Origin: a phage
Reading direction: 5' to 3' (one strand)
Sequence record: NC_101838.1
DNA length: 64,000 nt
In this document: positions 20,601 through 55,513 of the stretch, in pieces
How the letters are laid out: each line of letters begins with the position of its first letter
Numbering within the stretch: the stretch's first letter is position 1
Notes under the pieces: generated by a model
What the model was told of the DNA's origin: nothing
Databases searched by the model: none
Seen by the model: the letters and a program-made list of their open reading frames with translations, nothing else
Position numbers and translations under genes: made by a program

Positions 20601-20689
20601 ATAAAGTGTTGCAATAACCTAAAAACCTGCTATATTAAAACTCAAGGGGGCAAGACGTTTGCCCCACACAAAACAAAGAGGAAAACATT

Positions 20690-25674: not shown

Positions 25675-25938
25675 ATGAAACGCCTTGATCAGCTCAAATT
25701 AGTTCAATATATGGCTTATCGTGTTCTTGAAGTCCAGAAAGGTAGCAAAAAAGAGGTTTGCGAGAAAGCTTATAAGATCTTCACTCGCAAAAAAGATGAC
25801 TGGATGCTGCGCCAGACTAAAAAGGCTGACATCTTGGGGTACCTGGAAGAAGAGATCCGCCTTGAAGAGCAAGAAGAGATCCGCCGTAGTGAGGCAGATT
25901 ATCAGGCAGCTTGGGAAAACTGGATGAGCAACAAATAA
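25675..25938 (+). CDS. hypothetical protein
   Basis: AAAGAGGA RBS. Confidence 0.55.
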   Translation: MKRLDQLKLVQYMAYRVLEVQKGSKKEVCEKAYKIFTRKKDDWMLRQTKKADILGYLEEEIRLEEQEEIRRSEADYQAAWENWMSNK

Positions 25939-26081: not shown

Positions 26082-26501
26082 ATGAACATTAAATCTAATA
26101 ATCCGGCATATAGCTTTGATAACGCTTTTTGTCACGGTCCGGCGGCGAAAGGATTCGAAATCGATGGTAAACTAATTATTGTCAATGTTGACGGGGAAGA
26201 GGTTGCAGTATATCCGGTGGCAGACGTAAAAAGCCGTTTACAATGCCGCATGGATGTTACCGCCTATCAGCTTGATCCGGTTCGCATAGTTGCCCTGGTC
26301 CTGGAAGAAGAAATTAAAGCCATGCACCATAGCAACAGGTTTATTGGTGACGCTCAGGATAATATGAAGGTGTGCCGCCATAAAGTTAATGAAGTGCTTA
26401 AAGAGTACGGCTATAAAGATCTTATGATCAAACGTGATGAAAAATTCCGCTACCGTAACGACCTGGCAAATCGGATTTTTGAAATATACGAATCATTATA
26501 A
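26082..26501 (+). CDS. hypothetical protein
   Basis: AAGAGG RBS. Confidence 0.55.
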   Translation: MNIKSNNPAYSFDNAFCHGPAAKGFEIDGKLIIVNVDGEEVAVYPVADVKSRLQCRMDVTAYQLDPVRIVALVLEEEIKAMHHSNRFIGDAQDNMKVCRHKVNEVLKEYGYKDLMIKRDEKFRYRNDLANRIFEIYESL

Positions 26502-26519: not shown

Positions 26520-26546
26520 AAGGGGCTTAGCCCCTTTCTTTTTGTC
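26520..26546 (+). terminator. rho-independent terminator closing the plus-strand block
   Basis: AAGGGGC-TTA-GCCCCTT followed by TCTTTTT. Confidence 0.65.
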
Positions 26547-27464
26547 TGCTCTTCCCCCTACCATAAACGGCCCTACCTGGAAAGTGGAATAATTGACGAG
26601 CCATCAATCCCACACACTGTACAAACATACATGTAAAATAGCTATTGCATAACCTTTCATTGTGTGGTAGCGGTGCTATTTTTTACCAGTTTTCCTTCCA
26701 AAATTGCACGTAATGCAGCTATTGCATAAATTTTAACCTGATGCATATCTTCAATATCTTGTCAACAAATAAAAATTCTTATAAGTCATACACTTATACC
26801 CCCACAAAAGCGTTCTCTACGTGAAAAATCGGGCATAACTATAGCCGCCAGATCTCAGAATTTACGTACGCTCGCCATTCTATAGCCTGCTAAGTATTTA
26901 TTCCAACCATAGAATAATGGAATAGTCAATACCTGAATAAAATAATTATTCGTTTAAACTGCATAACATAAATCAGCTCAGGTGTCAACATTTTTCGTAA
27001 ACAGTCTTAAATTGTCACTGTGAGTTATCATAAACAGAGAAATCTTTAGTCGTCTAATGTTTACTGTACGTTACTATACTGACTGGAATCATTAGATGAC
27101 TAATAGAAAGATAAGAAATAATTAACGATACAATTATTTTACCTGTAACAATAAGGCAACTATGCAAACGAATGGCATGGCGCGACGGAGTCGCGACATA
27201 ATATAAAAGCAGTAACCATCACCCCCGTGATAGTTTGTCTGCAAACTATTAATCAGATCATAGTTGCCTTGTATTTAGTTAATCATGACATAACAAGCAA
27301 GGCAACTATAGATCTTCTAATAGTTGCCCTGCTTTTATATTATGTCATGCTAATTATAATCAGTGCGATTATTGTCATGCAAACGAATGGCATGGCTTAT
27401 CATCTCTGTGTAAACAATCTATGCGTGAACAGTGAAACATGAAATAATAACAGTCGTTATTGTG

Positions 27465-27520
27465 TCAAGTATTCCGATTGTGTCACCATTGTGTCTAAAG
27501 TGTCATATTGTGTCAGACAA
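27465..27520. repeat. four closely spaced ATTGTGTCA-type direct repeats
   Basis: ttattgtgtcaag, attgtgtcacc, attgtgtctaa, tattgtgtcagac in tandem. Confidence 0.5.
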
Positions 27521-27969
27521 GTTTTTCTCCTCTTTGTCAAGTGCTGCATGAAAAATTTACAAACTGGTATGGTAGCATTTTTGCGGACCTGTTTACATTC
27601 AGGAGTGTATGTATAATCCTTGTTGTGTGGGCGTTTATACGTCTGGACGGTCAGAAGTCTGCAGGTTAATATCTAATCTATTGGCTGCTAACTATATCCC
27701 ACACAAATGATAAGAAATATAATTGTTATATGCGTAAACTGTAACTCATGTTATCAATCCCTGTATGGATCGCCAGTGGTGCGCATAATGGGTATTATGT
27801 TAAATTGCCCGTAATGATAAAGGTTCTCACAATGATAGGTATTCTCATTCACCCTCACAAAATAGATTGCAAATGTTGTGCCACTGTGTGAACGGCCTCA
27901 CCTATTAATTTGCCTCACTGCCTCGATATTTGAGAATTATTATAAGAATGAGAAGTATTCCCATTCCGT

Positions 27970-28330
27970 CCGCCTGGCAGCACTCCTGTAGGTCCTGCAA
28001 GGACTCTAGCTTTCAGCTAGACCCTTCGGGCCTCCCTGTAGGTCAGGTCAAAATCGGGGTAGAATTGGGCCTATTCAGATATTTCTGGCTGACTCTTCAG
28101 GTCTGTGTGGGAAAAGCCAACCTCTCCGGCGGGGCAGGGGGATATCTGCGGGAAAATTGCAGGTCAATTAAAAAATTTACGTGGTATATGAAGCGCTCTT
28201 CAGGTAAGGCATGTATTATGGGATGAAACCCTCTTCAGGCAATGATATTTGTGGGTGTGATATTTGCTGGAAAGCCAGATATGACGGGACTCCCGGCGGG
28301 GCAGGGGTGGTACAGACAGGGAAAATATGA
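27970..28330. repeat. degenerate repeat cluster in non-coding DNA
   Basis: Recurring CCTGTAGGTC (x2), CCGGCGGGGCAGGGG (x2) and CTCTTCAGG units. Confidence 0.45.
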
Positions 28331-29005
28331 AGGATGTGGTTGGGTAGATTGATCAGACAGGTAGAGTATGGAATATGTTACAAGTATGTTAAATATGGAG
28401 GTTGAATATCTGTAGGATTTGTGTGTAAAATCAAAGACTTAAGTGGTGTTGTGGTATTTTCTATAAATAATTCAAGTTTAATAGGCAATATTTGTCTCTA
28501 TCCGCTTTGTGTGGTAAACAGATTCAGATTAGATTGGTTTACAAGTGTATACATAATATACAAATTAAAGATACAAGAAACCCCCCCTCCCCCCTTCGGC
28601 TACCATTCACCTTTTCCTCTGACTGGTACTTAAACACTTATTCAGACTCTTCAGGTTATCACCCATATATCATATGGCAGTGACTGGTGTCCTCCGGCCC
28701 CTCTTTCGTCACCCGTCCGCTTCGCCATGCTAATGCCATAGCTAATGGTTCGGTTGTTCACCCTGTTCACTCAGGTGTATCTCTATACCCCTTCAAACCG
28801 AAGAGAACAGAAAACCCGAATTACTCGGTAAAAGAAAAGAGAAGAACTTAATTTTATCAGGATAGGCAAGAATGTCAAGGTATGACTGCTCACTAAACAA
28901 GCAAACAGTCATGTGTGGGAGGTAAGTGATTGTGGTGGTAGGAAATTTAGTTGAAAGATGTGTTATAGGTGCTTCCAGCACTTTAGCCGGGCAGCTAATT
29001 GTGTG

Positions 29006-29221
29006 TCAGTCCAGCGGTTCATCCTCTACTTCACTGAAATCAATGTTCATGGTCTCTTCCCAACCATCGATCTCAGCACAAGAGTGGAGTTCTTTAGGGT
29101 TTACTCCCAAAGCCTCAGCAACAGAGTCTATATTTAACACCTCTGGCAGGTATGATTCATCGAATTCAAGGTAAATCAGGCCACGAGTGTTGTCAGCTCC
29201 ACCAAATATCTCTATCTTCAT
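29006..29221 (-). CDS. hypothetical acidic protein
   Basis: AGAGGAGA RBS. Confidence 0.45.
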   Translation of the reverse strand: MKIEIFGGADNTRGLIYLEFDESYLPEVLNIDSVAEALGVNPKELHSCAEIDGWEETMNIDFSEVEDEPLD

Positions 29222-29342
29222 AAAATCTCCTCTGGGAATGAAAGTGTGAACAGGGTTTTATACGTTCTAATGCACAGGAATTATACACGTTTGCCTCTTC
29301 AGGCCATGCTTTAGCATGAGGAACCTGTGTGGGCTCGGTGCT

Positions 29343-29555
29343 TCATAGTCTACCACCTCTGAACTCTTCGTGCTCAGGCATAATAGAGAACCAGATATCT
29401 ACGATGTCTTCCCACGTTAGGTCATCAGCCTCAGGATCTACCTGGAGCGAAGATGGAGAATCTTCAGAATCTAAGTTTTCCTCTTTCACTGGCTCAGCCA
29501 AGGGACATATAGTCACTCCTTTGGATGTCTCTTCAGATGCATGTGTGTTTATCAT
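29343..29555 (-). CDS. hypothetical acidic protein
   Basis: ORF. Confidence 0.4.
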   Translation of the reverse strand: MINTHASEETSKGVTICPLAEPVKEENLDSEDSPSSLQVDPEADDLTWEDIVDIWFSIMPEHEEFRGGRL

Positions 29556-29668: not shown

Positions 29669-29699
29669 TGTGGATACTATCACTGGATCGGTAATGTGT
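29669..29699 (-). promoter_or_regulatory. sigma70 promoter for the last minus-strand genes
   Basis: On minus strand TTGACA-N17-TAGTAT; the -35 lies inside a tandem 17-bp direct repeat. Confidence 0.5.
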
Positions 29700-29883
29700 C
29701 AACAGTCGGTAATGTGTCAACAGAAACGCCGCGAGGGTTTGGTTAAAATCCGAGCGTATGGTGATTTGGGTCAAAACGGACGTGCGTTCTCGCTACGCTC
29801 GAAATATGGAGTTGTTTGTAGGGAGCTCTTAAACGCTCTGTAATGAGATTAACTGCCCAAGGTATGCAATCGTGCACCAGATA

Positions 29884-53734: not shown

Positions 53735-54718
53735 TTAACCTTTCACGAAGTGGTTATTAAGCAGTTGTCTGTGCTGAACCCACCCACAAAAGTTGGCAGA
53801 CCAGAATTTACCATCACGGTCTTGATGGGTTACACCTTCCTGCCAAGTACTGATGTCTTGTGTGATTTCACATGAAGACAGGTAGTAGTTTAAACGTTCC
53901 ATTGCGTTATCGTGATCCATAGGTGTTGCCTGGTGCTCGTAAGGGCTTGCATGAATACGATCCCCACCAATCAATTTTTTAGCCACACTATCTGCCTTTT
54001 CAAACGTGCTGTCAATATTTCGATAAGATACTTGTGCACAGCAACTAGCACTGATAGACAGAGCTTCTTTAGTATCGAGAATGCAGAGCTTTCCTTCTGT
54101 GTCACGTACAGCGTAGTTAAACTCTCCGTCCAAATAAACGTGCTCTACATATGGGGTGTGCCATTGACCCGGTTTAAGGATTTCAGGAGTGCTATTCTCA
54201 AGAGCCTCCCACATACAATTAGCTAACATCTGAATCGTAGGATCCGCATCGTGCCAGCAACGGAGGTGGAAAAAATTATTCCACTCGGTGCTTGTTACAA
54301 CTGTTTTCATGCGCTGGAACGGCTCCACTAAGCGGTTACATACTTGCTTATGGTAACCAGCAAGGGCGAACTTCTCTGCATGCCAAGCGGCGTTTTTTGC
54401 AGCTTCTTTCCAAAACTCTTCAGGAGTTAGCTCCATGTCAGTGTACTCTACACGGATCTTTTGATCGTGTTCCCCACCATCTTCCATTCCTCGCTTATTT
54501 ACACCGAAGCGAACTGGCATTGCCGGATTCTCCACAATCTGTTGCAGCATCTTGCCGACAGGTACTGCACGGGAAGACATGGCGTTTCGGCTGAACACTC
54601 GGTGCGTCATAAGCTCTGAGTGAATAATTCGAGGATACTCTAGTTCAAAAGTGGTGATACGCTTACCTTTCTCGGAAATGCTGTCAGCAATAATCTTTGC
54701 AGTGCACAGTTTTAGCAT
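53735..54718 (-). CDS. thyX: flavin-dependent thymidylate synthase (ThyX-like)
   Basis: THRVFSRNAMSS fits ThyX signature (R)HRx7S. Confidence 0.65.
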   Translation of the reverse strand: MLKLCTAKIIADSISEKGKRITTFELEYPRIIHSELMTHRVFSRNAMSSRAVPVGKMLQQIVENPAMPVRFGVNKRGMEDGGEHDQKIRVEYTDMELTPEEFWKEAAKNAAWHAEKFALAGYHKQVCNRLVEPFQRMKTVVTSTEWNNFFHLRCWHDADPTIQMLANCMWEALENSTPEILKPGQWHTPYVEHVYLDGEFNYAVRDTEGKLCILDTKEALSISASCCAQVSYRNIDSTFEKADSVAKKLIGGDRIHASPYEHQATPMDHDNAMERLNYYLSSCEITQDISTWQEGVTHQDRDGKFWSANFCGWVQHRQLLNNHFVKG

Positions 54719-54919: not shown

Positions 54920-55513
54920 TCAAATACCTTCTAAAAATTTTCCTATTTTATACCAGCTATTAGCGGTATAGTCAACACTGACCTTTAACTCCTCGAATTG
55001 CTCATAAGGCGTATCTTTTAGGATTTTAATAACTTCAGGTCGTGAAGCGAATTGGTTCAGGTATTCATGCCTGTCGTCAATTATAACATCTACAGCCACA
55101 TTCCCTTTGAAATGTATGGCGTAGAAGCCGTGGCCCTGGGTGTGATCGTCCAGATCCATAAAATCACTGGTCCAACGCTTTAAGAACCTTGATTTAGATG
55201 CAAGGTGACCTTTCTTGCATACCGAGATAAATGCAAGCTTGTGACCACGAGCCACCAAATCTTTCATAACCTCAATAGCCCCCTCTTCAGGCTTAAGGAA
55301 GTCGTAGAGGAACGGATCACTCCAGAAATCAAAAGGTCCTATGATGTTTTCTTTGGGACGATCAGGCCAATACTTTGACAGATCGTAATACATTAGCCCA
55401 TTAGAAGGTTTAGCTACTGTCTTACTGGCTGGACCATACAAACGCTCCAACCACTCCCACCATGCTGTTCCTGAATCTACCAGTGTCAGATCTACATCAA
55501 TTCCGATTAACAT
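54920..55513 (-). CDS. HAD-superfamily phosphatase, probable 5'-deoxynucleotidase
   Basis: HAD motif I DVDLT at N-terminus; C-terminal DDR. Confidence 0.5.
   Translation of the reverse strand: MLIGIDVDLTLVDSGTAWWEWLERLYGPASKTVAKPSNGLMYYDLSKYWPDRPKENIIGPFDFWSDPFLYDFLKPEEGAIEVMKDLVARGHKLAFISVCKKGHLASKSRFLKRWTSDFMDLDDHTQGHGFYAIHFKGNVAVDVIIDDRHEYLNQFASRPEVIKILKDTPYEQFEELKVSVDYTANSWYKIGKFLEGI

Follow-up and report, generated by a model that had tools for sequence, protein, structure and literature searches.

The DNA considered here is a stretch of 64,000 nucleotides from a phage genome (sequence record NC_101838.1; called the window below and numbered from its first letter), which represents a Vequintavirus, that is, an rV5-like myovirus of Escherichia coli. 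Its closest relative is phage APECc02, with 98 % identity over this stretch, and about 120 records match the stretch at 88–99 %. The 9-mer CTCTTCAGG is a real, selected and lineage-spanning cis-element in this DNA: its copies are clustered, confined to one strand and invariant among close relatives, and the array recurs in other genera beside a site with the arms of E. coli dif, with a directional link to a second sequence box. The interpretation that we favour, at a probability of roughly 0.3, is that the copies are an oriented array of DNA recognition sites for a conserved trans-acting factor, situated in a terminus-like control region.

Number, placement and conservation of the copies

The window contains seven exact copies of CTCTTCAGG, at positions 28093, 28196, 28231, 28647, 29295, 54416 and 55283, all of them on the top (+) strand and none on the bottom strand. 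Shuffles that preserve dinucleotide composition gave a mean of 0.51 copies per window with a maximum of 3, and seven or more were reached in 0 of 100. An earlier note on this DNA, made without database searches, had pointed to the first five copies as a cluster of 1.2 kb in a single orientation and had considered them more numerous than chance would allow; the positions prove to be exactly as given, the excess is genuine, and two further top-strand copies are added. CTCTTCAGG is the most repeated 9-mer of the region, and permitting one mismatch yields a single extra local copy, CTCTTCAGA at 29529. The same note had reasoned that the cluster would lose its meaning if the motif were as frequent in the rest of the genome. 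The complete APECc02 genome (135.4 kb) has eight copies, and since five of these fall within the 1.2-kb cluster, which is 0.9 % of the genome, that objection fails. The two distal copies (54416–54424 and 55283–55291) are each inside a bottom-strand open reading frame (ORF) whose sense strand reads CCT GAA GAG, and they look incidental.

The five clustered copies are irregularly spaced (103, 35, 416 and 648 bp), four of them lying in a 2.4-kb gene-free region and the fifth in the next intergenic spacer. Copy 1 (Box 1, 28093–28101) is immediately followed by TCTGTGTGGG and has an exact orthologue in phage A73 at a similar distance from the dif-like site. Copy 2 (28196–28204), which reads CGCTCTTCA with its flank, is the least constrained, being ATCTTCAGG in the contig L139 and CTCTTTAGG in A73. 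Copy 3 (28231–28239) heads a repeat unit described below, copy 4 (28647–28655) lies within a near-invariant block downstream of a bottom-strand promoter, and copy 5 (29295–29303) occupies the spacer between two bottom-strand genes, with the hairpin CATGC-TTTA-GCATG and, after that, CTGTGTGGG downstream of it.

Eight GenBank relatives and one IMG/VR contig have exact versions of all five copies, and a second IMG/VR contig (L139) departs from this only at copy 2, so that 54 of the 55 instances across 11 Vequintavirus sequences are exact. The bases that touch the motif vary (positions −1, −2 and +1), and indels of 33–75 nt, bounded by direct repeats of 5–12 nt, adjoin copies 1, 2 and 5; in the relative L138 a hairpin-rich 46-nt insertion flanked by CTCTT abuts copy 5. 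Because the copies stay constant while the adjoining bases vary and indels run up to their edges, selection appears to act on the 9-mer itself.

The earlier note had also raised the possibility that the 9-mer is part of a larger degenerate repeat, and this is borne out, since copies 1 and 3 head paralogous units and copies 2 and 3 are part of a 22-nt duplication, ATGAAnCnCTCTTCAGGnAAnG. The paralogous units share the order CTCTTCAGG, TGTG(T)GGG, GGAAAGCCA and CTCC(C)GGCGGGGCAGGGG, with GGCGGGGCAGGGG placed in a GC-rich hairpin. The first, R1 (28086–28141, top strand), is made up of Box 1, Box 2, GAAAAGCCA and the GC-rich hairpin H1, which includes GGGCAGGG; the second, R2 (28223–28308, top strand), is a paralogue of R1 with insertions and has the GC-rich hairpin H2 at its end.

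Box 2 is the sequence that follows Box 1. After copy 1 it is TCTGTGTGGG (28102–28111, top strand), which is identical to the 10-mer boxC of the rrn leader, and after copy 5 it is CTGTGTGGG (29325–29333, top strand), which gives a 9/10 match to boxC over 29324–29333; at these two copies, then, the boxC sequence UCUGUGUGGG is present downstream on the same strand, as judged by sequence identity. Box 1 in the array is often succeeded by TGTGTGG, the rrn boxC sequence. The link is directional: TGTGG occurs no more than 35 nt downstream on the same strand in 11 of 32 motif instances, from six lineages, against a background of 7.4 % (p ~1e-5), and upstream in only 3 of the 32. The boxC core TGTGTGGG and its complement CCCACACA together occur 12 times in the window, six of them in this region, which is about a threefold over-representation. 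Sites of TGTGTGGG include 27624, 28104, 28912 and 29326 on the top strand, and its complement is found for example at 20663, 25308, 26609 and 27698.

Recurrence of the array beside a dif-like site

A dif-like site lies at 27778–27805 on the top strand, with the structure GGTGCGCATAA-TGGGTA-TTATGTTAAAT, and all copies of the array are on the side of its XerD arm. The arms are identical at 22 of 22 positions to those of E. coli dif (GGTGCGCATAATGTATATTATGTTAAAT), and the centre is TGGGTA rather than TGTATA. Both arms are invariant in all Vequintavirus relatives, in which only the central hexamer varies (TAGGTA in rV5). The corresponding site of A73, a Septuagintavirus, is GGTGCGTATAA-GTTGTA-TTATGTTAAAT, and the arms are kept, with other central hexamers, in A73, PVP-SE1 and contigs resembling Mydovirus, Certrevirus, Av-05 and Hena1. 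A pattern scan of IMG/VR for such sites returned 55 loci. Those with the host centre TGTATA are mostly on short contigs (~2–20 kb) and look like prophage junctions, or junctions of integrative mobile elements exploiting Xer (IMEX), with host dif. Loci with other centres are mostly on contigs of myovirus size, and the identities found among them by BLAST are PVP-SE1 (Seunavirus), a KPP-1/Mydo-like Mydovirus, a CR9-like Certrevirus and Av-05. The layout in PVP-SE1 is the same as in the window, a block of top-strand genes and a terminator being followed by 2.2 kb of gene-free DNA and a bottom-strand block. We note that L173 and L192, from one Hena1-like IMG/VR contig, each carry GGTGCGCATAA-GGTGTA-TTATGTTAAAT without a CTTCAGG array, and these may be two separate sites or one site sampled twice. 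No paper linking Xer or dif, the motif or the region to these phages was found in the literature searched, and a dif-like site in virulent myoviruses is apparently previously unreported.

The family consensus of Box 1 is C[T/A]CTT[C/T]AG[G/A], and the array recurs on the same strand in four other lineages of the Vequintavirinae whose surrounding sequences cannot be aligned, always 0.3–3.5 kb from the XerD side of the dif-like site. Within 2 kb on that side and on the same strand, CTTCAGG occurs five times in each Vequintavirus, about 0.12 being expected, four times each in PVP-SE1, a Mydovirus contig and L124, and twice in a Certrevirus contig; A73 has it once within this distance, together with CTCTTTAGG. 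There are about none on the XerC side, on the opposite strand or at host-type dif loci. The A73 sequence gives no blastn match to the window region, and yet an exact 9-mer lies 325 bp away from the dif-like site of A73, the distance in the window being 315 bp. The gene-free region of A73 also contains a different local array, CTCTGTGG(A/G)CAA, present four times on one strand (L141, 7215–7310). The gene for a 101-aa 'regulator' was tried as an anchor for distant relatives, in which its synteny was not kept, and a generic two-copy motif scan of IMG/VR returned unrelated coding repeats only.

Interpretations of the array

The settings in which the motif is found are disparate, since they include gene-free DNA, an intergenic spacer, the loop of a bottom-strand terminator hairpin and an overlap with a bottom-strand −35, while its orientation is constant; this fits a reading of the motif that is independent of local transcription signals. 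The motif is also constant across phages of Escherichia, Salmonella, Klebsiella/Proteus and Cronobacter, as are the dif arms and sigma70 hexamers, and such constancy across hosts would be the expected look of a site constrained by a slowly evolving partner. It is because of the single orientation in disparate contexts, together with this dif-arm-like constancy across host genera, that we rank a DNA-level array first. In that case an oriented cis-element, repeated in a terminus-like region of the Vequintavirinae, would have CTCTTCAGG as its invariant core (Box 1), and the copies would be read as DNA by one slowly evolving, sequence-specific factor, either a host protein or a core phage protein. 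The same-strand array could give direction or local concentration to a DNA transaction in the region, for which the candidates are control of Xer recombination at the dif-like site, entry of a replication fork or of packaging, and transcription into the region. We infer that the motif is read as DNA rather than as RNA, that a protein binds it, and that its role is tied to the dif-like site and does not simply reflect a shared ancestral region. A recognition site had been among the suggestions of the earlier note, and it is compatible with the data and is the one that we prefer. The order in which we place its rivals is bottom-strand transcription cassettes, an RNA signal of boxA/boxC type, and iterons or packaging repeats; none of the four is demonstrated, and the remaining probability is divided between sigma-factor or nick sites and explanations not considered.

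Several observations weigh against an array of recognition sites. No binding protein was identified, and the neighbouring small ORFs have no Pfam domains. The irregular spacing of the copies differs between lineages, and the shared side and orientation could be explained by common descent of one syntenic region. Av-05 and the Hena1-like contig have a dif-like site and no array, so the two are separable. The XerC side has only a degenerate copy on the same strand, ACATTCAGG at ~27594, and since it lacks an inverted set, the array does not converge on the site as the FtsK-orienting polar sequences (KOPS) converge on dif. In addition, the transcription-signal contexts of several copies are explained more concretely by the rival interpretations.

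Among known systems, KOPS/XerCD-dif and Ter are similar in that a short asymmetric motif lies clustered on one strand beside a dif-type site at a GC-skew switch, and on the XerD side, from which FtsK must approach. The differences are that the 9-mer is not GGGNAGGG, that there is no mirror-image set on the XerC side and that the replicon is a virulent myovirus and not a chromosome. KOPS themselves do not account for the region, since only 8 of 16 KOPS octamers point toward the dif-like site genome-wide, with mixed local orientations and no skew. We note that G-runs of the GGGNAGGG type recur 200–520 bp from the dif-like site in either orientation; they form G-rich hairpins in nearly every lineage (+200 to +520 bp), those of the window being at 28128–28140 and 28295–28307, and in PVP-SE1 a U-tract comes after the hairpin on the top strand (L195, 4691–4722). 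The Xer sites of IMEX and plasmids (CTXphi attP, cer, psi) are alike in belonging to mobile replicons and in having dif-type arms with a diverged centre, but they are found in filamentous or small phages, islands and plasmids with accessory sequences on the XerC side, whereas here the replicon is a 136-kb virulent myovirus with repeats on the XerD side. An extension of the array interpretation is that the Vequintavirinae carry a miniature 'chromosome terminus', in which a functional XerCD dif-type site at the point of convergence and GC-skew switch is accompanied by the oriented CNCTTCAGG array on its XerD side. The array would load, orient or activate a factor, such as an FtsK-independent Xer activator or a translocase, and host XerCD would resolve or cyclise the terminally redundant genome, for which Cre/lox near pac in phage P1 offers a parallel. 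In this specific form we consider the proposal rather unlikely.

A possible alternative, second in our ranking, is that the motif is part of terminator/leader–promoter cassettes of the leftward unit and is to be read on the bottom strand as 5′-CCTGAAGAG-3′. The order within a cassette would be a GC hairpin with a U-rich tail, CCCACACA, CCTGAAGAG at about −31 to −23 and a −10 hexamer, with the motif acting as a −35-proximal box in the position of the T4 MotA box, or being the best-kept part of duplicated cassettes like the promoter-early stem-loop (PeSL) units of T4-type phages. In L124 and L186 (Mydovirus contig) the bottom strand reads TTGACCTGAAG(A/T)G-N10-TATACT, followed by a Shine–Dalgarno sequence and the ATG of a real ORF, and a neighbouring copy there forms the loop of GGAGCC-UGAAGA-GGCUCC, which with the UUUUCUUUU that follows is a canonical terminator. 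On the same strand of the window, copy 5 is 9 nt upstream of TATAAT, ahead of the gene at 29221–29006, copy 3 is 10 nt from CATAAT (which also appeared in a promoter scan) and copy 1 is 8 nt from AAATAT. CCCACACA lies between a stem-loop and the Shine–Dalgarno sequence in the sense-strand 5′ leaders of several top-strand genes (e.g. 20663 and 25308), the sole strong conserved promoter of the region also points leftward, and the 5–12-nt direct repeats that flank the indels are as expected for recombination between repeated cassettes. However, a usable −10 is lacking at copies 2 and 4, the exact motif of L138 is 46 nt away from the −10, and L006 has lost the CATAAT. None of the 33 promoters listed for rV5 contains the motif, nor does any other intergenic region, in all 22 comparisons the top strand gives the more stable form of the hairpins H1 and H2, and a terminator loop and a promoter spacer do not make a coherent single mechanism for one motif. 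T4-type PeSL are similar in that promoters and stem-loops form short units repeated between small early genes, with indels bounded by short direct repeats, but the units described here are confined to one gene-free region by the dif-like site and most have no following genes.

More doubtful is a top-strand RNA signal like those of rrn and lambda antitermination, in which Box 1 (CUCUU[C/U]AG) would be boxA-like and Box 2 (UCUGUGUGGG) would be boxC; as in nut sites, the two are at times separated by a hairpin. Such modules on a long untranslated transcript could recruit or titrate Nus factors, either for protection from Rho or for interference with transcription of host rRNA. The boxC identities after copies 1 and 5 and the directional order of the boxes speak for this proposal, as do copy 2, which with its flank (CGCUCUUC) is 7/8 identical to lambda boxA (CGCUCUUA), and the CUCUUUAG variants of A73 and PVP-SE1, which match the boxA core CUCUUUA. 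The top strand is moreover G-rich and has the stabler hairpins, long untranslated RNAs require protection from Rho, and host Nus factors would account for conservation across genera. But boxA is the 8-nt sequence (U/C)GCUCUU(U/A), in which G2, C5 and U6 are intolerant to transversion, and here only the least conserved copy, copy 2, has the required G2, the others having A (copies 1 and 4) or C (copies 3 and 5). The best-conserved part of the motif, CUUCAGG, is shifted 3′ with respect to the part read by NusB/NusE (GCUCUUU), and CACUUCAGG variants, which are common in other genera, break boxA U4. There is no convincing top-strand promoter upstream of the array, copy 5 as top-strand RNA would be antisense to genes, and the genome shows no enrichment of canonical boxA, of which a transcript normally needs only one. 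The likeness to the rrn leader and lambda nut lies in a bipartite directional module within untranslated sequence, a pyrimidine-rich CUCUU-type box followed by an exact boxC, sometimes with a hairpin between, and the differences lie in the mostly unmatched G2/U8 of boxA, the shifted core, the many copies and the missing upstream promoter.

It is unlikely that the copies are iterons of a replication origin, or terminase (pac) repeats, beside a site for multimer resolution or cyclisation, as in plasmid ori/cer and P1 pac/lox. They are direct repeats of one orientation, they lie where the window is gene-free and richest in A+T, and they have the dif-like site as a neighbour. The orphan promoter described below reads through a G-rich/C-rich tract into the A+T-rich segment 28430–28575, a layout like that of an R-loop origin; packaging in these phages is of the headful type with partial permutation, and several GenBank records are linearised inside the gene-free region. 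Set against this, the irregular spacing over more than 1 kb is unlike that of known iteron or pac arrays, neither an initiator gene nor a Rep protein was identified, the GC-skew peak and convergent transcription indicate a terminus and not an origin, and the ends of the records are possibly the submitters' choice. Arrays of iterons or DnaA boxes (e.g. the type I 8-bp iterons of P4) are similarly short, asymmetric and variably spaced repeats near an A+T-rich segment, but here there is no known cognate initiator and transcription converges rather than diverges.

The earlier note had further stated that each copy is followed by a −10-like sequence. On the top strand this is so for copies 2, 4 and 5, which have −10-like hexamers with A2 and T6 at 8–12 nt (TATTAT at 9 nt in the case of copy 2), but not for copy 3, which has only a poorer hexamer at 4 nt, nor for copy 1, which has none; hexamers on the bottom strand are about equally good (copies 5, 3 and 1), and in our reading those on either strand are no better than chance in a genome of 57 % A+T. 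A top-strand −35-type element for an alternative sigma factor, or a site of single-strand nicks in virion DNA, is very improbable despite the single orientation and the short asymmetric sequence, since the best −10 hexamer lies at 4–12 nt (top strand) or 7–10 nt (bottom strand) or is lacking, no top-strand ORFs follow the copies, the motif is not among the genome's other promoters or intergenic regions and yet occurs inside terminator-hairpin loops of relatives, the phage is reported to depend on host sigma70-type promoters, and no nicks are reported for these phages in the literature searched.

Various other identities were considered and rejected. A hammerhead ribozyme is suggested by the bottom-strand CUGAAGA, which conforms to CUGANGA, but there is no consistent GAAA or helix II partner and an Rfam search gave nothing at E<=1. 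Pseudo-ToxI, the 34–47-nt tandem repeats of a type III antitoxin, does not fit, since only 22 of 35 nt are similar between two units and the phiTE locus is located elsewhere, by tRNA and terminase genes. The small ORFs (MK.SSG peptides and annotated ORFs of 36–44 aa) have starts and frames that are not conserved, are broken by indels and contain homopolymers of varying length. GAAGAG(G) resembles a Shine–Dalgarno sequence, and UGAAGAGG does serve in some genuine ribosome-binding sites, but the copies are not followed by a conserved start codon. Mimicry of host DNA gained no support from blastn against 5,426 E. coli genomes, which gave no match, although this search is insensitive below ~30 nt.

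The gene-free region and its significance

The gene-free region (26545–29005) is a 2.4-kb interval on which two gene blocks converge and where cumulative GC skew reaches its peak. The top-strand genes stop at 26501 with a terminator and the bottom-strand genes start at 29006; GC skew is positive over 28–29 kb, where the top strand is G-rich. The interval has no conserved ORFs and no tRNAs, and neither strand gave an Rfam hit at E<=1. In the rV5 genome paper it appears as a 'non-coding' box with no promoter predicted inside. A strong orphan promoter of the sigma70 type (28851–28878, bottom strand; TTGACA-16-TAAAAT with TG), with no ORF downstream, is the region's only strong conserved promoter, and its hexamers are retained in L138 despite a spacer that differs in sequence and by 2 nt. 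It is at the right end of a near-invariant block (28575–28935), which is conserved above the level of the flanking coding sequences and holds copy 4 and a C7TC6 tract; the promoter is followed by a weak hairpin/U-tract (28828–28806) and then by ~270 nt of near-invariant sequence (28575–28850). Fold z-scores for the block (−1.05 on the bottom strand and −0.03 on the top strand) are not significant and give no indication of a structured non-coding RNA, and the folding of motif-centred segments is likewise unremarkable. The C7TC6 tract (28581–28594; G6AG7 in bottom-strand RNA) differs in length between relatives, is a KOPS octamer on the bottom strand and is adjoined by the conserved A+T-rich stretch 28430–28575. 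It is reminiscent of the G-rich conserved sequence block II (CSB II) of human mitochondrial DNA, where transcripts prime replication.

Other repeats are found in and near the region. A cluster of ATTGTGTCA-type repeats (TGACACAAT on the bottom strand), with three exact copies and variants, occupies an indel-rich stretch at 27449–27520, and it has a 20-nt match of 90 % in common with a perfect 18-bp tandem duplication, TCGGTAATGTGTCAACAG, at 29688–29723, which overlaps the −35 of promoter P162 as listed for rV5. Nested repeats at 27146–27346 include ATAGTTGCC/GGCAACTAT, present four times in both orientations, and a perfect 18-nt inverted repeat (27195–27212 and 27329–27346), and ATGCAAACGAATGGCATGGC is a perfect 20-nt direct repeat at 27162 and 27377. 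Several Vequintavirus records deposited independently in GenBank start or end in the gene-free region at the equivalents of ~27516 (three records), ~27593, ~27980, ~28438 and ~29688, and several phAPEC8-like records end ~1–1.2 kb past the ORF164 homologue; these ends could reflect the submitters' choice, the behaviour of assemblies or a packaging-related end. To the left of the region, an 87-aa ORF (25675–25938, top strand) carries the annotation 'DNA translocase FtsK' in the records of APECc02 and navn. Pfam gives no match for this ORF, the annotation is probably spurious, and an FtsK-like protein was rejected. About 19 records (MG0656xx), described as 'Campylobacter phage' with the host Campylobacter jejuni, are 91–97 % identical to the window over the region, and this host assignment is doubtful.

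The 2.4-kb 'non-coding' box has stood unexplained on maps of rV5-like genomes since 2013. A conserved internal anatomy can now be seen in it, composed of the oriented array of 9-mers, motifs of boxC type, a strong orphan promoter followed by an invariant block and a host-type dif site, and this anatomy makes the region experimentally tractable. If the modules are sites for Nus or other host factors, they would show a phage dealing with long untranslated transcription in a new manner. What makes the finding valuable above all is that virulent myoviruses are seen to have a conserved terminus-like control region with a host-type dif site in it. Should that site be functional, these phages would use the host Xer machinery, which was earlier linked only to filamentous and small phages, plasmids and islands, and this would bear both on the circularisation or resolution of permuted genomes and on the engineering of phages that are therapeutic candidates.

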